From Pseudomonadota bacterium (GTDB taxonomy: Bacteria > Pseudomonadota > Gammaproteobacteria > Steroidobacterales > Steroidobacteraceae), in assembly GCA_023457495.1 (NCBI GenBank), contig JAEWLQ010000113.1, positions 19,629 to 83,628 of the forward strand: a stretch of 64,000 nt of DNA. The letters run 5' to 3'. How positions within the stretch are numbered: the first letter of the stretch is position 1; each line of letters opens with the position of its first letter. Positions 25,905-49,983 of this stretch are shown piece by piece. The notes beneath the pieces are model-generated. The model worked only from the letters and a program-made list of their open reading frames with translations. It had not been told where the DNA came from and made no database searches. Both the position numbers and the translations under genes were made by a program.

Positions 25905-27278
25905 CTAACTACTCACCCGCATCTGGCGCGCGAGGCGCCAGGCCACCGCCCCGAGCGAGAGCACCCCGACGCCGAGCGCGGCCCAGAGGACCGCGATGCG
26001 CCATCTGCCCGAGGGGGCGGGCGCCATCAGACGCTCCAGGCCCCCGGCGATCCGCGGCTCGGAAAGCTGTGCGTACGGCTGGGCGATCATCGCGTCCGCG
26101 GTCAGCGTGTCGCCCGGAAGAATGTCCGGCAGCGCGGTTTCCGCGTTCTCCGCGACGAAATTGCCATACACCAGCTCGAACGGCGCGGCGCCCCGCGCCA
26201 CGAACACCACCCGGTGCGGCAACCAGCCGGTGCGCAGCGCGGGAACACCCGCGCCGAATCCGCCGCCGCGCGGGTCGACGACCACCCTCCAGTAGCGGCT
26301 GGCAACCACGGATATCGCCTGTGGCGGGGAGCGCAATTCCTCGTTCGCCGCCTGCAGACGGTAGACGCCCGCGCGTGTCACGCGTCGCCACGGAGCGTCG
26401 TGCGCGCGGCGCGCGAAGTATTCGACCTGCGCGACGGTGTTGACTTCCGGTAGTTCGAGATCGAGCCGATCGACCGGCAACTGCGCGCCGAGATCGAACA
26501 GGTATTCGCCTGGCTTGGCGCCCGCCTGCCCGGGAACGGACTGCTCGCGCCTGGCGACCGCGACGTTGCCGGCGACCGGAGCGGCCACGACGCCGGTGAA
26601 TTCCGGCAAGGTGGCGCCCGGCGGCGCGCGCAGGCGCCAGTAGTTCGCGCGCGTGGGCGCGAAAGAAGCGGTGAGGTTCTCGAACAGCGCGCCGCCATGG
26701 CGCAATCGCGTCAACGGCACCGTTCCCCCAACCGGGCGCCAGCGCGCCAGGTCGTCGCTGGTCTCGAGCGTCGCGGACAGCGAAAAATCCGGCGCGGTCT
26801 GTGTTAGTTCGAACGTCAGCGATTCGACCATGGCATCGACGCCGCGCGCGTCGATCAGATAGGCGGCGAGCGGCGCGGTGGCTGGGACGGCCGCACCACC
26901 CTGCACTTCGAGGGACGTCGTATCGCCGCGAATCGTGAGACTCAACGCCGAGGGCGCCTCGGCCTGCGCGCCCCGCAATGGAAACTGCTGAAGCCGAAGC
27001 ACGGGCACGGGCCGCTCGACCTCGGAAGCCGGCCGTTGCAACGCGAACGGTACGACCTGGCCGCTGCCATTGAGCACGCGCAGGTCACGCATGCCCTGAT
27101 CGGTCGCATCCCGGTACACGGCGAGCGGCAGCTCGAACCACTGCAGTGGCGCGCCGGGCCACGGCGCGACCGTTGCGGCGTAGGCGAACTGGTCACGCAC
27201 GTTCTCACCGAGCGCCGGAACCGCCACGCACAGCGCGGCGAGCGTCGGCAGCCATCCCGGCCGTCGTTTCAGCTTCAT
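25905..27278 (-). CDS. DUF3999-like exported protein with C-terminal TM anchor
   Basis: Track ORF 25905..28658 trimmed to the Met giving 457 aa. Signal peptide MKLKRRPGWLPTLAALCVAVPALG, a beta-rich ectodomain, and a C-terminal helix IAVLWAALGVGVLSLGAVAW. ATGA overlap with the upstream gene. Family name is from memory. Confidence 0.7.
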   Translation of the reverse strand: MKLKRRPGWLPTLAALCVAVPALGENVRDQFAYAATVAPWPGAPLQWFELPLAVYRDATDQGMRDLRVLNGSGQVVPFALQRPASEVERPVPVLRLQQFPLRGAQAEAPSALSLTIRGDTTSLEVQGGAAVPATAPLAAYLIDARGVDAMVESLTFELTQTAPDFSLSATLETSDDLARWRPVGGTVPLTRLRHGGALFENLTASFAPTRANYWRLRAPPGATLPEFTGVVAAPVAGNVAVARREQSVPGQAGAKPGEYLFDLGAQLPVDRLDLELPEVNTVAQVEYFARRAHDAPWRRVTRAGVYRLQAANEELRSPPQAISVVASRYWRVVVDPRGGGFGAGVPALRTGWLPHRVVFVARGAAPFELVYGNFVAENAETALPDILPGDTLTADAMIAQPYAQLSEPRIAGGLERLMAPAPSGRWRIAVLWAALGVGVLSLGAVAWRLARQMRVSS

Positions 27279-29998
27279 GCTTTCTCCGGTTGAGGCTCCG
27301 CCGGTGGCGCGGGCGAAAATCGTCCGATGATCAGCATCAGGACACCGACGCCGATGAACGAGACGATGCGCGCCACCGTGCCGGTGCGCGACAGGTCGAC
27401 CAGGAACATCTTCGCGAGCGCGATGGCGAGCAGCGCCGCGCCCGTGAACCACACCCATCGCTCCGCCCGGCGCGTGCCCAGCACCATCGCCAGCAATGCG
27501 AGCGCACCCCAGAAGATGGACAGCGCCGCCTGCACCAGCGTGGACGCCGCGAGCGCGTCCGGCGTGTACGCGACGCCGGTCACGTGATGGATGACCCGCA
27601 GCAGGATGGCATTCGCCACCGCGAAAGCCGCCAACGCGAAGGCGGCCACGAGGGCGCGACGCGTATGCACGGGCAGCCAGGCGTGCGGCGCGCGCCACTG
27701 GCCGAGCAGCCAACCCGCGATCGCGGCCAGGGCGAAGCCCTGACCGATCTCGACCGGGTTGATCGCCGGTAGATAGGGCAAGGGGCGCGCACTGGCGTCG
27801 TCGAAACACATCGACAGCACCCACAGCCATAGATAGGCGGCCAGGCCGCCGGCGGCGACGCCGACGTACGCCTCCGGATGCGCGTTCACCGGCCAGCGGG
27901 CGCGGCTCCACGGCGTCAGCAGGATCACGAGGGCGGCCGCGGGCACCAGACCGGACACACTGCGATGCCACGCGGCATCTCCCAGCCCCGGCAGCGCGAT
28001 CCACCAGGTCAACTCGCAGGCGATCCACGCGACGAAAAACCACAGCGTCGCGACGTGAAACGCCGGTTCCGCGCCCGACAGTTCCGGGCGATGTTTCCAG
28101 CGCAGCAGCCAGAACCAGGCTCCGAATGCGAACGGCCAGGCTATCCACCCGCCGTCCACGAGGAAATGGCCGTCGTCGAAAACCGCGAGCATGGCGGCGA
28201 TCATCATGACGGGCAGCAGCAGCGGCGTCGGCGTACGCGCCTCGCGCCATTCGTTCCAGCGGGACAACGCGGCGCAGCCGAGTGCGGTCGCCGTGACGAA
28301 CGCCAGCAATGCGGGCAGGCGATGCGGCCCGGGCAGGAACTCGTTGATCTCGCTGGCGCCCGCGAACGTCCACCACGCGAGCGCCCAATAGAACGGCACG
28401 GCCGTCGATGAAGCCAGGGACTGCGGCAACCGCTCGCGGTGCACGTGGGCGATGCGAGCGGTTACGAATCCGCCGACCGCGATCAGCAATGCTCCGACGA
28501 ATTCGCTGTTGGCGAGCGGCAGTTGGTGCGGGGCGACGTCGTGGCCCAACGCGTATGCCACCGCGGCGCCGAGCTGCAGCAACAGGCCCGACCCGATCGC
28601 GAGCGCCCGCCCCTGTCGCACGCCGACCCAGAAAATGGCCGCGCCTTCCAGCGCCCACGTGCCGGCGGTCCAGTGACCGTCGAGCGCCAGCGGCACCGCG
28701 AGCGTCAGGAACGCCACGCCGAGCGCGAGGAAGGATTCGGCGAGCAGGCGCAGCCCCTCACCGGCGCGCCGCCAGGCGAACCGCGCGGCCAGTAGATAGA
28801 TGGCGCCGAGCGCCAGCGCGCTGAACGCCATCGCGTACGGGCGGTCGCGCACCAGCGCGGACTGCAGCAGCATCGTCATCACCGGCGTGCCGAACACCAA
28901 CGTTCCGTCGACGTAGTCCGTGAGCCGCGGCGCCGTGCGCAATGCGAACAACACGGCCACGGCGAGGAACATGAAGAAGAACAGGATCACGAAGGGCTCG
29001 ACCGTCGCGAAATCCTCGGGCGCGTACCGCAACACTCCCCACGCGGTGCCGATGCCATACGTGAACACGAATGCCAGCAAGTTGAGCGGACGCCACGCCT
29101 TGAACCAGGCGATCGAAACGATGCCGGCATTGAGCAGCGCGTAATAACCGAACAACACCACGTGATTGCCCTGGCCCGTCGAGGCCAGCACCGGCGCGAG
29201 GAATCCACCCAGCGCGCCCATCACCGCCAGCGCGAGCGCGTTCTGGCCGATGGCCAGGAACGCCGAGAGCGCGGCAATCGCCACCAGCATCGCGAAGACC
29301 GCGGACGCGGGCAGCAGGTCGTACAGCCGCAAGGCCGCGAAGGCCGTCAGATACAGCAGGCCGACGCCACCGCCCTGCAATGCCAGCGCGTATTGCCGCA
29401 ACCGGTTTCGCAGGCGCCAGCCGATGACGAGCAGTGCCGCACCGCCGAGCGCGGCGCCCGCGAGACGGAATTCGATCGGCAGCATGTTGCGCTCGGCCGC
29501 GAACTTGAGCAGGAAGCCGACGCCGATGAACAGCACCAGCACGCCGACACGCACGACGAGATTGCCGCCGAGGAACCAGTCGCGGATCCACGCGACGAGC
29601 GCGGGTGGCTCGTCGTTCGCCGTGACTCGTGGGCGTGGCGGCGGGAAAGGTCTCAAGGGCTCGGGGTGGGATGCAGCCAACGGCGGAATCGGCGCCGGGG
29701 GTGCGGGGATTGGAGGCGGCTCGACCGCCGGAACCGGCGCGCTCTCGCGCGCTTCGGTGGCGTCGACCCGTTCAGGTATGGGCGCGACGTTCCGCGCGGC
29801 CGGCCTCGCCGGCGCTTGTTCGTCGATCGTGCGGCTGAGCTCGAGCTGACGGACCGTGCTTTCGATCTCGTCGAGCCGCGCGCGCAACTGGATGTTCACG
29901 CTGATGGCGTAACCCAGCGCCACGCCCGCCAGCGCTCCTGCCCAACCACCCATGACGCCACCGACAAAGGCGCCGGCCAGCATCAGCAAGATCTGCAT
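27275..29998 (-). CDS. DUF2339-like giant polytopic membrane protein
   Basis: 907 aa. N-terminal TM, a coiled-coil (RARLDEIESTVRQLELS), a Pro-rich linker, then more than 20 hydrophobic helices. Family name is from memory. Confidence 0.75.
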   Translation of the reverse strand: MQILLMLAGAFVGGVMGGWAGALAGVALGYAISVNIQLRARLDEIESTVRQLELSRTIDEQAPARPAARNVAPIPERVDATEARESAPVPAVEPPPIPAPPAPIPPLAASHPEPLRPFPPPRPRVTANDEPPALVAWIRDWFLGGNLVVRVGVLVLFIGVGFLLKFAAERNMLPIEFRLAGAALGGAALLVIGWRLRNRLRQYALALQGGGVGLLYLTAFAALRLYDLLPASAVFAMLVAIAALSAFLAIGQNALALAVMGALGGFLAPVLASTGQGNHVVLFGYYALLNAGIVSIAWFKAWRPLNLLAFVFTYGIGTAWGVLRYAPEDFATVEPFVILFFFMFLAVAVLFALRTAPRLTDYVDGTLVFGTPVMTMLLQSALVRDRPYAMAFSALALGAIYLLAARFAWRRAGEGLRLLAESFLALGVAFLTLAVPLALDGHWTAGTWALEGAAIFWVGVRQGRALAIGSGLLLQLGAAVAYALGHDVAPHQLPLANSEFVGALLIAVGGFVTARIAHVHRERLPQSLASSTAVPFYWALAWWTFAGASEINEFLPGPHRLPALLAFVTATALGCAALSRWNEWREARTPTPLLLPVMMIAAMLAVFDDGHFLVDGGWIAWPFAFGAWFWLLRWKHRPELSGAEPAFHVATLWFFVAWIACELTWWIALPGLGDAAWHRSVSGLVPAAALVILLTPWSRARWPVNAHPEAYVGVAAGGLAAYLWLWVLSMCFDDASARPLPYLPAINPVEIGQGFALAAIAGWLLGQWRAPHAWLPVHTRRALVAAFALAAFAVANAILLRVIHHVTGVAYTPDALAASTLVQAALSIFWGALALLAMVLGTRRAERWVWFTGAALLAIALAKMFLVDLSRTGTVARIVSFIGVGVLMLIIGRFSPAPPAEPQPEKA

Positions 29999-43894: not shown

Positions 43895-44122
43895 GTGAAG
43901 ACCGGCAAAGTGAACATCCACGAAGCGAAGACCCACCTGTCGCGGCTCATCGAGGACGTGGCGAGTGGCAACGAATTCCTGATCGCCAAGGGCGGCCGGC
44001 CCATGGCGCGGCTCGTGCCCCTCGGCCGCGACGACATGCCGCGCCGCGCGGGCCTGCTCAGGGGCAAGCTTCGGATCGACGACGATTTCGAGCGCTCGTT
44101 CGACGCGCTGACGCCCTTGTAG
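43895..44122 (+). CDS. type II antitoxin, Phd/YefM-like (partner of PIN toxin)
   Basis: 75 aa. VNIHEAKTHLSRLIEDVASGNEFLIAKGGRPMARLVP plus a C-terminal DDDF motif. 25 nt upstream of the PIN gene. Confidence 0.85.
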   Translation: MKTGKVNIHEAKTHLSRLIEDVASGNEFLIAKGGRPMARLVPLGRDDMPRRAGLLRGKLRIDDDFERSFDALTPL

Positions 44123-44147
44123 GGGCGCCCTCCCCTACCCCGCCCAG

Positions 44148-44528
44148 ATGCGCCTGTTGCTCGATACGCAAATCTTTCTCTGGTGGCTTGTCGACTCGCG
44201 CAAGCTGGGCAAGGCAACCCGCGATCGCATCGAGGCCGCCGACGAGGTCTACGTCAGCGCGGCATCCATCGTGGAATGCGAAGCCAAGATCGCGGCGGGC
44301 CTCCTGGAGGCGGATGCGGCCGAACTCGCGGCCGGCATCCGCGCCAGCGGATTTCTCGAACTACCGGTGCGAGCACGCCCGGCCGCGGCGGCGGGTGATC
44401 TGAAACCGCAACCGGGCGTCGACTTCTTCGACCGCCTGCTCGTCGCACAGGCCATGACCGAGCCGCTGCGCTTTCTCACGGCGAATGCCGCCCTGCGCAA
44501 CTATTCGGAGCTCGTCGAGCTCGCCTGA
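44148..44528 (+). CDS. vapC: type II toxin VapC (PIN domain ribonuclease)
   Basis: 126 aa. N-terminal LLLDTQ (first acidic residue), SIVECEAK, and DFFDRLLVAQA near the C-terminus. Confidence 0.88.
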   Translation: MRLLLDTQIFLWWLVDSRKLGKATRDRIEAADEVYVSAASIVECEAKIAAGLLEADAAELAAGIRASGFLELPVRARPAAAAGDLKPQPGVDFFDRLLVAQAMTEPLRFLTANAALRNYSELVELA

Positions 44529-44556
44529 GGCGGTCATCGCGCACGCGACGACCGCC
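44529..44556. terminator. hairpin between convergent vapC and GG-leader peptide gene
   Basis: GGCGGTCaTCGCG-ca-CGCGAcGACCGCC, an imperfect stem of about 12 bp in the 37-nt spacer. Confidence 0.5.
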
Positions 44557-44565
44557 GAGATGCCC

Positions 44566-44865
44566 TCAGCGGATGCCGGTCACGTTGACGAACGTGAACT
44601 CCCCGTCGCCGCTCGTCAGCCGGATGCTCACCGTTCCCGAGGAGAGACTGCCGGACTGCGCGACGCTTCCGCCGCTGTTCTCGAACATGCGCGCGAGCTC
44701 GAGGATGTCCGCGGAACCAAGCGGGACCGTCATCGTCCCCGGTGGACCCCCCAGCCCATCCATCCAGCGCGAGATGGATTCCCAGAACCGATCCACCGCA
44801 CTCTTGCCTCCGGCGACTCGATCGATTTCGGGATTCGTGAGGGCAACGATTCCATTCGTTTTCAT
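44566..44865 (-). CDS. double-glycine-leader peptide (bacteriocin/microcin-like precursor)
   Basis: 99 aa. AAGGAG lies 5-6 nt before the ATG, and third-position GC is high in this frame. The leader MKTNGIVALTNPEIDRVAGG matches the GG-leader consensus at positions -1/-2, -4, -7, -8, -12 and -15. Confidence 0.75.
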   Translation of the reverse strand: MKTNGIVALTNPEIDRVAGGKSAVDRFWESISRWMDGLGGPPGTMTVPLGSADILELARMFENSGGSVAQSGSLSSGTVSIRLTSGDGEFTFVNVTGIR

Positions 44866-45020
44866 TTCAACTCCTTGTGAAATTGACTCTCGGATGAGCG
44901 GCGCAACTTACCGCGTCGAGTGGCGGTCCAGTGAGGGTCATACCTGGTCAATCACGGTCGAAACGTGAGCGTACTGGTGAGCCCCTCGTACAGCGATGAC
45001 CCGGCCGAGCCTGCTATGAG

Positions 45021-45620
45021 CTACTGGCCCAAAAACTCTCCTGAAACTTCGAGTCTCGACGCCGGCAGCAATTCATTGCAGCGCGCATCGGTATCCTGCT
45101 CGACATTCCATGTGATGCCCGATACTCCCGTGAGCCACGCACGAACTCGCTCGATATCAACCGCGTCGTGACTTTCCCAGATATTCGGCACTTCAGACCA
45201 GTCGCTGCGAAAGAGCCTCAAGCGCGTCAAAGTCAATGTCCGCGCAAGTTCCAGGAGTGATCGCATCTGCTCTGGAGACAGATGGGCGAACTTGTCGTTG
45301 AATGTCCCGGAACGCCCAATGGCTTCCTGATAGGAATAGTGATGAATAGTGCCGTCCGGGTAGACAGAGATCGCTCCGTCCTGGCAATTACGCGGACCGC
45401 GTACGAATACGTGCACCAGCCGACTGCGCTTGTATTCTGCACAGCGCGCCGCGGCATCAGGAGCTTGGCCTGACGACTGTGCGTCAACGCCTGGCGGACA
45501 GGCGGCTTCGAACGCATTTCCTTTGGTCCAAACGTGCTTTGTCGTGCCTGAATTCGAGCACGACGCCAATACGACGAGGCTCATCAGAGCCAGCATTCCC
45601 TGCACCCGGTCAAAATGCAT
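45021..45620 (-). CDS. lipoprotein of unknown function
   Basis: Track ORF 45021..45689 trimmed to Met24, with GGAG 6 nt upstream. Lipobox in MHFDRVQGMLALMSLVVLAS-C. Four further Cys. Gene GC is about 53-57%. Confidence 0.75.
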   Translation of the reverse strand: MHFDRVQGMLALMSLVVLASCSNSGTTKHVWTKGNAFEAACPPGVDAQSSGQAPDAAARCAEYKRSRLVHVFVRGPRNCQDGAISVYPDGTIHHYSYQEAIGRSGTFNDKFAHLSPEQMRSLLELARTLTLTRLRLFRSDWSEVPNIWESHDAVDIERVRAWLTGVSGITWNVEQDTDARCNELLPASRLEVSGEFLGQ

Positions 45621-45767
45621 GATCAACTCCTGGCGCCGCTTCCTTGAGCCCCTACCGCAGACTTCTTTGTCGTGATGGCCGTGCCCCATGACAGCAACAC
45701 GCCACCGAATCCATCAAGAAGGCAAACTACCAGAGTTCGACCCGTAACTCCGCCCGCACTTCTTCCC

Positions 45768-45807
45768 GAACACAAAAGAGAAAGGCCGGAGCCTTTCGGC
45801 CCCGGCC
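45768..45807 (-). terminator. rho-independent terminator after the M16 peptidase gene
   Basis: The minus strand reads GGCCGGGGCC-gaaa-GGCTCCGGCC followed by TTTCTCTTTTGTG, about 20 nt after the stop. Confidence 0.7.
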
Positions 45808-45828
45808 CTTGTCTTCCAATCGATCCAA

Positions 45829-48594
45829 CTACTTCGAGACGACTTTGCCGTCGGCGTCGAGCACCGTGACTTCGCCGAAGTTCAGCGCGCGCACGGACTT
45901 CTCGATCTTCGACAGATCGCCAACCACCACCCAGGTCAGCGCATCCGGCTTGACGAGCTTGCCGGCCGACGCGTTGACATCGGCGGGCGTCAGCGCGGTG
46001 AGATCGCCGACGAACGTATTCCAGTAATCATCCTTCAGGCCAAAGGTGAGGATCTCGCCGTACGAGTTCGCGATCTCATCCGAGGTCTCGTTGTTGCCCG
46101 GCAGCGCGATCGCGATGCTGTCCTTCGCGAACTTGAGCTCGGCCTCATCGGGCTTGCGCGTGGTCAGCACTTCGCGCAGTTCCTTGCGGATCTCGACCAT
46201 CGACTCGGCGGTCTTGTCCGTCTGCACGGCGCCGCCGGCGCGGAACGTGCCCTGCCCGATCGCACCCGTGATGCGCGTGCCAGCGCCGTACGACCAGCGC
46301 TTTTCCTCGCGCAGGTTCATGTTGAGCCGCGAGGTGAAGTTGCCGCCGAGCATCGTATCGAGCGCCACAAAGCGGATGTGATCCGGATCGGCGCGCGTGG
46401 GGCCGACTGTGATCGCCACGATCTGAGACTGCTCCGCGCCGGCGCGGTCGACCAGGAACACACGCGGCTTCTCGGGTAGTGAGACCGTCGAGATGTTCTT
46501 CGTTGGTTTGTCCCCGGGCGCCGCGCGCCAGCCGCCGAACCGCTGTTCGAGCAGTGGTTTGACGGCCGCGAGCGTCGTGTCACCGACCACCAGCAGCGTC
46601 GAATTGTCGGGGCGCACCCAGCGTTTGTAGAACGCGGCGAGCTCCGCGCCCTTGAAGCCCGCGACGGAATCCTCCGTTCCGAGTCCCGACGCGGGGTTCG
46701 CATACGGATGGCCCGCGCCGAAGAGCAGCTGCGGCGTGATGCGATTGATGATGCCCTGCGGCTGCGCCTTCTCCTGCTGGATCTGCGCGAGCGTCTGGCC
46801 GCGCAGGCGCTCGAGCTCCTTGTCGGGGAAGGTCGGGTTCAGCAGCACGTCGGCGTACAGGTCGAGCGACTCGCTCAGCCGGCCCGACAGCGCATTCATG
46901 CCGAGGTAGGAGCGATCGAGCGACGAGCCGATGCCGAGCGTCGCGCCCAGCGATTCGGCGCGCTCGGCGATCTCGAGTGAGCTCGCGGTCTTCGTGCCTT
47001 CCTGCAGCATCAACATCGCGAGTCGCGCGGTGCCGGGCTTCGCCTGGCTGTCCGCCGCGAATCCGACGTCCGAGATCAACGTGAAATCCACCACGGGCGC
47101 GTTGTGCCGCTCGACCAGCACGACCTCGAGACCGTTCGAGAGCTTCGTGCGCACCGGCGCGGGTAGTTTGAGCGAGGGCGGCTCTCCGGTCGCCGGCGGC
47201 TTGCTGCGATCCACCGTCGAGGCCACCGTTGTGTAGGTCGGCACCGGATCGACGTTGAGCACGAACACGCCATCGGACAGCCAGCGCTTCGCGGCGCCCT
47301 GCACCTGCACGGGAGTCGCCTTCGCCACCCAGTCGAGGCGCGTCTTGTAGAAGTCCGGCGAGCCGCCGAACACCTGGCTCTCGGCGAGGATCGCCGACTT
47401 GCCACCGAAACCGTCGATGCGCTCGATGCCGCGCGCGAAGCTCGCGTAGTTGGTCGTGCGGACGCGCTCGAGCTCGGCCGGGGTCGGGCCGGTCGCGAGG
47501 AAACGCGCCAACTCCTCATCCATCGCCTTCTCGACCACGGCCGGATCGACGCCCGGCTTCACGGTGACGACGAGTTGCACCTGCGAGCCGATCTCGAACG
47601 GCCCGACGAAGGCGCCCACCGAGGTCGCGGTGCGATCCGTGTACACCAAGCGCTTGTAGAGGCGGCTGTTCTTGCCGTTCGCGAGGATGTCGGCCGACAC
47701 GTCGAGCAGCGTAAAGTCGTGCTGGCGGTAGCCCGGGATGTTCCACACCTTGTAGATGCGCGCCTGCGGCACGCGATCCTGCAGCATCGCGCGACGCTCG
47801 CCCGTCATCTTGGCGACCCAGTCCGTCTGGCGCTTGATGACCGGGCCCGAGGGAATGTCACCGAAATATTTCTCGACCTTGGCCTTCGCCTCGGCGGCCG
47901 TGACGTCACCCGCGATCACGAGCACCGCGTTCGCCGCGCCGTAATACGTGCGGAACCACTCCTTCACGTCCTCGAGCGAGGCCGCGTTGAGGTCTTCCAT
48001 CGAACCGATGGTTTCCCACGAATACGGATGACCGGCCGGATACGTGCTCTGCGCGATGAGCTCGCCGACCTTGCCGTACGGACGGTTCTGCCCCTGGCGC
48101 TTTTCGTTCTGCACCACGCCGCGCTGCTCGTCGAGGACCTTCTGGTCGATCGCGCCGAGCAGATGGCCCATGCGGTCGGATTCCATCCACAAGGTCAGGT
48201 CGAAGGCCGAGGTCGGCATGTTCTGGAAGTAGTTGGTGCGGTCGAGCCAGGTCGTGCCGTTGAGCTTGGTGGCGCCCGCGGACTCCATGATCCGGAACCA
48301 GTCGTCGCGGTAGTTCTCCGAGCCGTTGAACATGAGGTGCTCGAACAGGTGGGCGAACCCGGTGCGTCCCGGGCGCTCGTCCTTGCTGCCGACGTGGTAC
48401 CAGATGTTCACCGCCACGACCGGCGCCTTGCGGTCCTCGTGGACGATGAGCGTGAGCCCGTTGTCGAGCACGAACTTCTGGTAAGGGATTTCCACCGCGG
48501 GCAACGGCGCCGTCTTCGGCGGCGCTGCCGCCAGCGTGGTTTGCATGGCGGTCGCGGTGAACATCAGCAGGACGGCGGATCGCAGCAACTTCAT
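45829..48594 (-). CDS. secreted M16-family zinc peptidase (two fused M16 units, PqqL-like)
   Basis: 921 aa with a signal peptide and the inverted zinc motif HLFEHLMFNGSENY. The second half is an inactive-type M16 repeat. Confidence 0.9.
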   Translation of the reverse strand: MKLLRSAVLLMFTATAMQTTLAAAPPKTAPLPAVEIPYQKFVLDNGLTLIVHEDRKAPVVAVNIWYHVGSKDERPGRTGFAHLFEHLMFNGSENYRDDWFRIMESAGATKLNGTTWLDRTNYFQNMPTSAFDLTLWMESDRMGHLLGAIDQKVLDEQRGVVQNEKRQGQNRPYGKVGELIAQSTYPAGHPYSWETIGSMEDLNAASLEDVKEWFRTYYGAANAVLVIAGDVTAAEAKAKVEKYFGDIPSGPVIKRQTDWVAKMTGERRAMLQDRVPQARIYKVWNIPGYRQHDFTLLDVSADILANGKNSRLYKRLVYTDRTATSVGAFVGPFEIGSQVQLVVTVKPGVDPAVVEKAMDEELARFLATGPTPAELERVRTTNYASFARGIERIDGFGGKSAILAESQVFGGSPDFYKTRLDWVAKATPVQVQGAAKRWLSDGVFVLNVDPVPTYTTVASTVDRSKPPATGEPPSLKLPAPVRTKLSNGLEVVLVERHNAPVVDFTLISDVGFAADSQAKPGTARLAMLMLQEGTKTASSLEIAERAESLGATLGIGSSLDRSYLGMNALSGRLSESLDLYADVLLNPTFPDKELERLRGQTLAQIQQEKAQPQGIINRITPQLLFGAGHPYANPASGLGTEDSVAGFKGAELAAFYKRWVRPDNSTLLVVGDTTLAAVKPLLEQRFGGWRAAPGDKPTKNISTVSLPEKPRVFLVDRAGAEQSQIVAITVGPTRADPDHIRFVALDTMLGGNFTSRLNMNLREEKRWSYGAGTRITGAIGQGTFRAGGAVQTDKTAESMVEIRKELREVLTTRKPDEAELKFAKDSIAIALPGNNETSDEIANSYGEILTFGLKDDYWNTFVGDLTALTPADVNASAGKLVKPDALTWVVVGDLSKIEKSVRALNFGEVTVLDADGKVVSK

Positions 48595-48709
48595 GGGAAT
48601 CCTCTATCAACAAAGCTGTGAACGATGAACGGAACAATGCCAGCCGCAACGGCCAGCCGTGCGGCTCTTTACGGTCAAGCGAGCGCGGGATGAGCCGAAC
48701 AGTGCTGTT

Positions 48710-49150
48710 TCACTGTCCATCGGCGGAGGTGAAACCCCGGCAGACCACGGCGAGCTTGTTGCCATCGGGATCACGCACGTAGGCTGCGTAGAAGTCGGGG
48801 TTGTACAGCAATCGCAGACCGGGAGCCCCTTCCGAAGTTCCACCGTGCGCGAGCGCGGCGGCGTGGAAGTCCTCGACCTCGCGCCAGCTCTTCGCCCACA
48901 ACGCCACCATGCTGCCATTGCCGACGCTCGCCGGTTTTCCGTTGAAGGGTTGGCAGATCCAGAGTGCGTCCTGCACGGCGCCGGACTCTTCGTACAACCC
49001 CCAGCCGATCCAGCCCGTCCAACTCGACTCGCTTTCGCCCGCCGTGTCGCAGCGCGCGTAACCGAGCACGCCGAGCACGGCGTCGTAGAACTTCGCCGAA
49101 CGCTCGAGATCATCGGAACCGAGGCAGATGTACGCGAACATGGATCTCAT
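48710..49150 (-). CDS. VOC (glyoxalase/bleomycin-resistance/dioxygenase) family protein
   Basis: 146 aa. The beta-alpha-beta-beta-beta pattern and the C-terminal YVRDPDGNKL are typical of the VOC fold. Confidence 0.72.
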   Translation of the reverse strand: MRSMFAYICLGSDDLERSAKFYDAVLGVLGYARCDTAGESESSWTGWIGWGLYEESGAVQDALWICQPFNGKPASVGNGSMVALWAKSWREVEDFHAAALAHGGTSEGAPGLRLLYNPDFYAAYVRDPDGNKLAVVCRGFTSADGQ

Positions 49151-49181
49151 GACGCGCGCATCCGGAATCTCGCGGAAATTC

Positions 49182-49646
49182 TCAGCGCCTCACGGGCACG
49201 ACGTACGTGTCCGCGATTCCGTCATGCCAGCCGCGCTCGCCGAACAGCACGGAGAATGCCTCGAAGGGGATCAGCCGACTGACGGTCCGCAGACAGATGT
49301 CGCGAAGACTGGGCGGAAGTCCGTAGTTGGTCACGACCTTCGTGCGAAACACCAGCTTGCCCGGCGTCCGCGCCCAGATACCCTCGAAGAACAGGTAATA
49401 GATCACGGTGACGATCACGCCAAACACGAGGTCGGGCGTGGACTCGAGCCAGTCGAGGGCATCCTCGCCAAAAAACATGACTGACAGAAAGCCGAAAACG
49501 AAGACGATCGCGAACATGCAGACGAGATCGACGATGTAGGTGCCGAAGCGCAATCCCTTGTGCGCCGGCTCGATTTCTTCCGCGGCCGGCTGCTCTTCCA
49601 CGATCGCCGCCTTCGGCGGCTGATAGGGATTGAATTCTTCGGTCAC
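49182..49646 (-). CDS. RDD family membrane protein
   Basis: 154 aa with 2-3 TM helices. RFGTYIVDLV and WARTPGKLVFRTKVV are RDD-like. Confidence 0.68.
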   Translation of the reverse strand: MTEEFNPYQPPKAAIVEEQPAAEEIEPAHKGLRFGTYIVDLVCMFAIVFVFGFLSVMFFGEDALDWLESTPDLVFGVIVTVIYYLFFEGIWARTPGKLVFRTKVVTNYGLPPSLRDICLRTVSRLIPFEAFSVLFGERGWHDGIADTYVVPVRR

Positions 49647-49749
49647 GAGTGGCTACCCCGCGTTTCGACCATCCACAGTCAATGGATTCGCTGCCACGAA
49701 CTGAGATTTCGTGACACCGGCCGGCGCTCCGGCCGTGTCCCGCCCCGAC

Positions 49750-49983
49750 CTATTCCGCCCAGCGGACCTCGATGCCCTCGGTTACCCCGATCGCCTTGCG
49801 CAGCAGCTGCGCGAGATCGATCGATGCGCCGTTGTTTTCCAGGATGTCGACCGTGTCGAGATTGATGAAGTAGTCGACGTCCTTGGAGTCTTCCTCCTCG
49901 AGCACGTCGACCAGGCACTGCACGTCTTCTTCGCTGATGGCGCCCAGGAGCGCGCCCGAGTTCTTGTCATAAAGATTCGGCAT
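49750..49983 (-). CDS. small highly acidic protein, unknown function
   Basis: 77 aa with 18 Asp/Glu against 5 Lys/Arg. It starts 27 nt after the eno stop on the same strand. A GC-rich hairpin at about 49714-49738 follows it. Confidence 0.6.
   Translation of the reverse strand: MPNLYDKNSGALLGAISEEDVQCLVDVLEEEDSKDVDYFINLDTVDILENNGASIDLAQLLRKAIGVTEGIEVRWAE

Follow-up and report, generated by a model that had tools for sequence, protein, structure and literature searches.

Export of double-glycine (GG) leader peptides by C39-ABC exporters (PCATs) is well known and, to our knowledge, almost all of the characterised Gram-negative cargo consists of enterobacterial microcins accompanied by small membrane immunity proteins. 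In pneumococci, some GG peptides are exported in trans, guided by their leaders, by PCATs that are encoded elsewhere. Class II microcins carry an N-terminal GG or GA leader of about 15-30 aa that is cut by a C39 PCAT, are exported with the help of an HlyD-type MFP, have a ribosomal core of <10 kDa that sometimes contains one disulfide, and are encoded in compact operons (PMC12219008). The pneumococcal PCATs ComAB, BlpAB and RtgAB, as summarised in PMC7018657, export diverse GG peptides, which include both signals and bacteriocins. Two further groups of systems are of relevance here. One is NSR, a membrane-associated S41 peptidase with a Ser/His dyad and no CtpA-type Lys, which inactivates a bacteriocin by proteolysis (PMC4698656). 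The other comprises the polymorphic toxin-immunity systems such as CDI and Rhs, where, in the outline given by PMC3482391, a constant N-terminal delivery part is followed by a hypervariable C-terminus and a partner gene.

The 64-kb stretch of DNA analysed here (the window) contains a small gene whose product is probably an extra cargo for a PCAT encoded at a distance in the same genome, which would cut it after Gly20 and release an acidic, Cys-free α/β mini-protein of 8.25 kDa. The features of the locus are the following:

44566..44865, minus strand: gene of the pre-protein (99 codons and a stop), which belongs to a new family of GG-leader cargo as a stand-alone ('orphan') member
44806..44865, minus strand: double-glycine leader, codons 1-20 (MKTNGIVALTNPEIDRVAGG), with predicted C39 cleavage after Gly20
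44569..44805, minus strand: mature domain of 79 aa (KSAVDRF...VTGIR), a predicted α/β mini-protein
44871..44876, minus strand: Shine-Dalgarno sequence AAGGAG, 5 nt before the ATG, as read from the sequence
44529..44556, no strand: GC-rich inverted repeat GGCGGTC-N14-GACCGCC, within the 37 nt that separate the peptide gene from the convergent PIN gene
45781..45810, minus strand: hairpin resembling an intrinsic terminator, behind the upstream gene for the M16 peptidase, with a 13-bp stem, 9 GC pairs and a T-rich tail

The original prediction regarded this frame as a real gene with a strong Shine-Dalgarno sequence, and both points hold. The ribosome-binding motif lies at the expected place with a 5-nt spacing, its GGAG core is unchanged (A/T-GGAG) in the upstream regions of six stand-alone loci, and about 25 clusters of homologous proteins were found. 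Purifying selection acts on the gene in the annotated frame, with pairwise dN/dS values of 0.09-0.53 among eight orthologs. When compared with its neighbours, however, the gene evolves fast: its dN of 0.30, versus 0.02-0.06 for the M16, PIN, Phd, FtsB, IspD and IspF genes, is about 5-13 times that of most flanking genes, and its dN/dS in the same comparison is 0.34-0.53 as against 0.05-0.16. Fast evolution with a dN/dS below 1 is typical for small secreted proteins. Regarding transcription, a counterpart of the hairpin at 45781..45810 is conserved in the orthologous loci, and this terminator sets the M16 peptidase gene apart from the transcription unit of the peptide gene. The inverted repeat at 44529..44556 is possibly a bidirectional terminator, which a simple terminator scan passed over because the repeat is not followed by a T-run. 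A scan for sigma-70 promoters around the peptide gene found none.

The close homologs, 51-72% identical to the window protein, share the order of the site, which runs from the M16 peptidase through the peptide and the convergent PIN/Phd pair to ftsB and ispD. The pair, at 43895-44528 on the plus strand of the window, encodes an antitoxin of the Phd/YefM type (75 aa) and a toxin with a PIN domain (126 aa); it is conserved at every copy of the ftsB locus and is absent both from L013, a locus of different context described below, and from the cassette loci. Directly upstream of the peptide gene, a 222-aa ORF (45021-45689, minus strand) shows a GC content of about 56-58%, versus 66% for the window, and a lipoprotein-like start (…MLALMSLVVLASCSNSG), and belongs to no Pfam or NCBIfam family. 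It occurs only in contigs of this species (L001-L004) and is missing from the same site in the relatives (L006, L008 and L016-L019), so that it looks like a recent insertion. The genes eno and ftsB are adjacent in many Gammaproteobacteria; in the window, their interval (45829-49983, minus strand) holds a 77-aa ORF, an RDD-family protein, a glyoxalase-like protein and the 921-aa double M16 peptidase, which has a signal peptide. The content of RDD genes differs among the relatives, with three in L008. Farther away, at 25905-29998 on the minus strand, lie adjacent large genes for a DUF3999 protein and a DUF2339 protein (a predicted membrane protein), with partly overlapping ORF calls.

The N-terminus of the ORF reads MKTNGIVALTNPEIDRVAGG directly before the mature start KSAV, and every leader position that had been predicted was verified: GG at -1/-2, V17 at -4, I14 at -7, E13 at -8, L9 at -12 and I6 at -15. 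Homologs without this pattern would have spoken against a leader, but the pattern is invariant in the 23 members of the family alignment. Nine columns are invariant there (M1, I6, L9, E13, I14, V17, G19, G20 and P42), seven of which (I6, L9, E13, I14, V17, G19 and G20) belong to the leader, whereas G5, V7, K21, W28, G37 and G65 are conserved in at least 90% of the sequences. The GG at residues 19-20 is likewise unchanged in all 23 aligned members, a set that does not include a cassette copy with GA that was found later. Of the 2647 candidate start sites in the window, a strict GG-leader regular expression matched that of the peptide gene alone, and over about 330 kb of related loci its matches were confined to genes of the peptide family. 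Curated models, however, did not recover the leader: for the window protein, neither the GG-leader and bacteriocin HMMs of NCBIfam nor Pfam gave any family at E ≤ 1. In the AF2 model, the leader is of low confidence or disordered except for a short helix at residues 11-18. The conservation described above shows that the double-glycine leader of the window gene is real; no other part of the protein is conserved as strongly, and the leader is the signature of the family.

A full-length pre-protein of 10.3 kDa would yield a mature part with a computed mass of 8253 Da, a pI of 4.77, 30% Gly+Ser, no Cys and a GRAVY of 0.0, in agreement with the earlier description of a Cys-free, Gly/Ser-rich and acidic product. 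That description also held such a core to be unlike the usual cargo, which stands with respect to the class II bacteriocins of Gram-positive bacteria but fails for Gram-negative class II microcins, among which an acidic, Gly/Ser-rich core of 8 kDa is not unusual. In the same AF2 model (with the 23-sequence alignment as input), a folded α/β core was obtained with pLDDT values of 77-87 across residues 21-99, consisting of a helix at 20-35, a Pro/Gly linker, a helix at 51-63 and three β-strands. The mature part is thus predicted to be a compact folded α/β mini-protein and not a linear peptide. A sequence-profile search of the PDB with the peptide gave a best E of 0.57, and a Foldseek search against the PDB returned nothing at E ≤ 0.001, with a best TM-score of 0.40 as normalised to the query.

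The protein belongs to no described microcin or bacteriocin family. Exhaustive phmmer and profile searches delimit a family of about 25 clusters among billions, with proteins of 99-134 aa whose mature parts drop to 23-31% identity with that of the window protein. Some phmmer matches to much larger proteins (801-3476 aa; P0007, P0009, P0011 and P0014, which are FG-GAP, SprB, DUF11 or MobA proteins) were dropped as compositional or repeat artefacts. Rfam gave no match for the window or for two cassette loci. Within the family, a stand-alone type and a cassette type can be distinguished. The stand-alone copy occupies a fixed chromosomal site beside ftsB-ispD across species, and four closely related MAGs share it at 92-97% identity; its leader is shorter than those of the cassette copies and does not show their long N-terminal extension. 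Distant and cassette-type members contain a conserved pair of Cys, located in the second helix and near the C-terminus, respectively, which would be in keeping with an extracytoplasmic protein stabilised by a disulfide. Both are missing from the stand-alone clade of the window, which has lost the Cys pair of the family, both residues together. A stand-alone-type copy in a different context is found in L013 (1-6189; 6720-9457), where a 59% identical protein, with no TA pair and no M16 peptidase, is encoded directly behind a protein with RTX repeats that exceeds 2062 aa, with two opposite-strand genes for rhomboid-domain proteins adjoining. RTX-repeat proteins are typical substrates of type I secretion.

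The original prediction found neither a peptidase-containing ABC transporter nor an HlyD-type adaptor in the 64 kb and offered, as a first alternative, that the peptide is cargo for a distant exporter. The absence was confirmed by Pfam scans of ten ORFs of the window, including all the unidentified ones of at least 550 aa, which detected no C39 or ABC exporter, and by tblastn searches of the 64 kb with the S41, HlyD and PCAT proteins, which gave a best E of 0.09. The alternative itself is favoured by what lies beyond the window. Paralogs of the peptide (P0008, P0024, P0022 and those of L025-L029) head a four-gene cassette, with the order GG(GA)-peptide, S41 protease, HlyD adaptor and C39-ABC exporter, and lie immediately 5' of the S41 gene; the linkage to the C39-ABC exporter and MFP is present for P0008, P0022, P0024 and L022-L027, with full cassettes in L022 and L023. 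The protease is of about 500 aa with Peptidase_S41 and Tricorn_C1 domains (Pfam), the adaptor is a protein of 415 aa of the HlyD/AprE type, and the transporter, of about 704 aa, combines C39, ABC_membrane and ABC_tran domains. No modification enzymes were found at either the stand-alone or the cassette loci.

A scan of GTDB species genomes found the stand-alone type in five MAGs. In four of them (JAKFFF, JAFAGC, JAEYUC and JAEZCR) a stand-alone and a cassette-type peptide occur on separate contigs, whereas the cassette of the fifth (JAEZCN, L026) was missed by the pattern-based scan because its peptide carries GA in place of GG. GA is an accepted variant of the GG cleavage motif, and this peptide (…ELVAGA, then K) maps to positions 9591-9923 of L025 and 3663-3995 of L026. 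The cassette locus, which follows the gene for pyruvate carboxylase in every related MAG, is therefore present in all five, and the PCAT itself is visible in three of them, since the contigs of the other two end there. For the window itself, a 99.9-100% identical counterpart exists in the ENA assembly ERZ24910792 (NODE_48, coverage 16.28) and likewise in a contig of the Logan run SRR13358376. The S41-HlyD-PCAT genes lie in the same assembly on NODE_216 (coverage 15.26), with a composition similar to that of the window, and are also in SRR13358376; the placement of window and cassette in one genome rests on this shared metagenome assembly and on the similar coverage and composition. The PCAT of this cassette contig (L030) is intact: its C39 domain retains the Cys motif QTEAAECGLACL, and Walker A and LSGGQ are likewise kept. 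Only 120 nt of the L030 contig precede the S41 gene, so that the peptide gene of this cassette is truncated by the contig edge. A frame in positions 1-120 that ends in '…ADGVATPSRITCTP…' resembles the C-terminus of a cassette-type peptide ('...RITCTP') with no stop where it would be expected, which may reflect a break in the assembly, a frameshift or a variant of greater length. One of the S41 homologs is labelled Steroidobacteraceae.

The 16-residue core of the leader is identical at 10 of 16 positions between the window and cassette copies, as against some 25-30% identity for their mature parts. The preservation of this core while the mature parts diverge would be expected if a single C39 domain constrains both copies. 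In the proposed pathway, the leader of the window protein (I6, V7, L9, E13, I14 and V17) would dock in the C39 domain of the exporter, which, acting in trans, would cleave after Gly19-Gly20, and the mature domain of 79 aa would then leave the cell through the PCAT-HlyD pair and an outer-membrane channel. The window copy is a stand-alone paralog of the cassette cargo, with the same leader code and no dedicated S41 protease. The stand-alone clade, with its shorter leader, no Cys pair and no partner protease, could nevertheless have a different fate. In most of its features the window protein behaves as a GG-leader PCAT cargo, the exceptions being a match to a curated HMM and a physical linkage to an exporter.

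The cassettes themselves show an unusual pattern of variation, as seen in the comparison of three closely related genomes (L022, L023 and L025), where pairwise identities are as follows:

flanking genes (pyc, MFP, RND): 97-99%
PCAT: 97-98%
HlyD: 92-97%
peptide, whole: 54-60%
peptide, mature part alone: 36-46%
S41 protease: 46-49%
hypervariable module (mature cargo plus S41): L022 4989-6828, with equivalents in L023 and L025; the rest of the locus is 92-100% identical

In a sliding comparison, the identity of the DNA stays at 95-100% across the promoter region and over most of the leader, is 81-90% in the step across the GG cleavage site and drops to 20-60% right past it, with a recovery near the stop codon of the S41 gene. 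From these comparisons, the mature cargo and S41 constitute a swappable, co-varying module of two genes inside a constant export locus, a pattern that looks like that of an effector paired with a cognate protease for immunity or processing. The region of about 130 nt upstream of the cassette peptide (L022 4749-4880) is 96-100% identical among close genomes, including L023 and L025, and is strongly conserved also in the distant L011 and L021 (…CTCGCCGACATGGGGTT.GTGAGCG…GGAGTAAGAAATG), with no match in Rfam; it could be a regulatory region or a 5' UTR.

In the case of the S41 protein, an N-terminal membrane anchor or lipoprotein-like signal precedes a domain with invariant S94-H95, S406 and E409 (the latter two in a SASAAE motif), and the position of the CtpA-type catalytic Lys holds D, N, E or S. 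Its model (pLDDT 87) matches CtpA, CPAF and Prc with a Foldseek probability of 1.0. The protein fits a Ser/His-type S41 peptidase similar to NSR and tricorn, with predicted catalysis. Its middle domain is the most variable, with a mean identity of 38% as compared to 55-58% for the helical and core domains, which fits a substrate recognition that co-evolves with the cargo. Since a periplasm-facing protease would meet the cargo only upon its re-entry, we infer that immunity is favoured over maturation. A more speculative extension, which we put forward tentatively, is that the PCAT/HlyD exporter with a swappable folded effector of about 80 aa and a membrane-anchored Ser/His S41 protease that specifically either inactivates or matures it would form an undescribed competition system, where the window copy is a non-polymorphic second cargo with a distinct role, such as a kin signal or decoy. 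If true, protease-based immunity or a 'pherotype' logic would be new to GG-leader systems.

As to the role of the window protein outside the cell, microcin-like antagonism and a diffusible signal are the leading guesses. The protein could be itself a toxin of the class II microcin type, exported by the distant PCAT, with immunity provided by an unrecognised gene or in trans by the S41 of the cassette. The GG leader, the acidic Gly/Ser-rich core of 8.25 kDa and an export by PCAT and MFP reproduce the layout described in PMC12219008, the cassette paralogs are hypervariable in a toxin/immunity-like manner, and the peptide gene outpaces its neighbours in evolution. We regard this as unlikely, however, for the gene has no adjacent gene for a small membrane immunity protein, its neighbours being the M16 peptidase, the species-specific 222-aa ORF and the PIN/Phd pair, and the predicted compact, soluble α/β fold is unlike that of the usual membrane-active microcins. 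Moreover, in four MAGs the stand-alone copy is 92-97% identical whereas the cassette cargo is only 54-60% identical, so the two are not engaged in the same arms race. This contrast, together with the lack of a partner protease, suggests that the stand-alone copy may be a conserved signal or accessory cargo instead of an arms-race toxin.

An exported 'public' cargo of that kind, such as a cell-cell signal or a matrix or adhesion factor, with the variable cassette cargo giving the strain specificity, is a possibility that we would hold only loosely. It would agree with the fixation of the stand-alone copy next to ftsB-ispD across species, with purifying selection on a protein that has no partner protease, and with the export by PCATs of signals besides toxins that is outlined in PMC7018657; neither a receptor nor a two-component system lies nearby in the window, however, and the dN of the gene still amounts to about 5-13 times the value for most neighbours. 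Far less credible is that the gene is a relic paralog whose product is no longer processed, perhaps cytoplasmic and tied to the PIN/Phd pair or to the M16 peptidase as a substrate. The loss of the Cys pair and of the long N-terminal extension of the leader would be compatible with a relic, as would the arrangement at the ftsB locus, where the gene invariably converges on PIN/Phd and follows the M16 gene, but the leader residues on which C39 recognition depends do not vary and dN/dS stays under 1. A functional tie to M16 or PIN/Phd was rejected, given the terminator that stands between the M16 and peptide genes and the members of the family that occur without either partner, such as the L013 copy beside the RTX protein and the cassette copies. 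Export of the window protein in trans by the distant PCAT is the reading that we prefer.

In comparison with the class II microcins, such as MccV with CvaA/CvaB/TolC, the layout of the cassette is alike in its leader, PCAT, HlyD-type MFP and small core, and the window product is similarly gene-encoded, below 10 kDa (8253 Da) and without dedicated modification enzymes. The window protein, however, shows no similarity to these microcins by sequence or HMM, its core is predicted as a folded α/β domain, and the slot usually taken by a small (≤216 aa) inner-membrane immunity protein holds in the cassette an S41 protease of about 500 aa, while the window copy has no linked gene for an exporter or for immunity. 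The likeness to the pneumococcal GG peptides lies in being GG-leader cargo for PCATs, but those systems are Gram-positive, handle short linear peptides and have neither an HlyD/TolC tunnel nor an S41 partner. With NSR, the cassette protease shares the S41 fold, the Ser/His arrangement and the absence of the CtpA-type Lys, although NSR is a resistance factor of non-producers against a lantibiotic, whereas the cassette S41 belongs to the export operon of the producer and co-varies with the cargo. As in the polymorphic toxins, the cassette paralogs show a sharp junction between constant and hypervariable parts and a hypervariable downstream partner; their delivery part, however, is a GG leader of 20-32 aa and not a large filament or shell, and the partner is a protease, where those systems have an immunity protein that is small and acts by binding. 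As for the window copy, it stands without a partner and shows no hypervariability in close relatives (92-97% identity among four MAGs), yet it evolves faster than its flanks.

What is new with respect to all these systems is a family of cargo, predicted as folded mini-proteins without known relatives and confined to an uncultured, probably gammaproteobacterial lineage, together with a dedicated operon where an S41 protease stands in for the immunity gene and co-varies with the cargo, and an apparent recombination breakpoint located at the leader cleavage site. Moreover, one exporter probably serves a second, conserved cargo that is unlinked to it, which indicates that genome mining should pair seemingly orphaned peptide genes with exporters genome-wide. 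The system also provides a model, open to testing, of self-protection or maturation by a protease.
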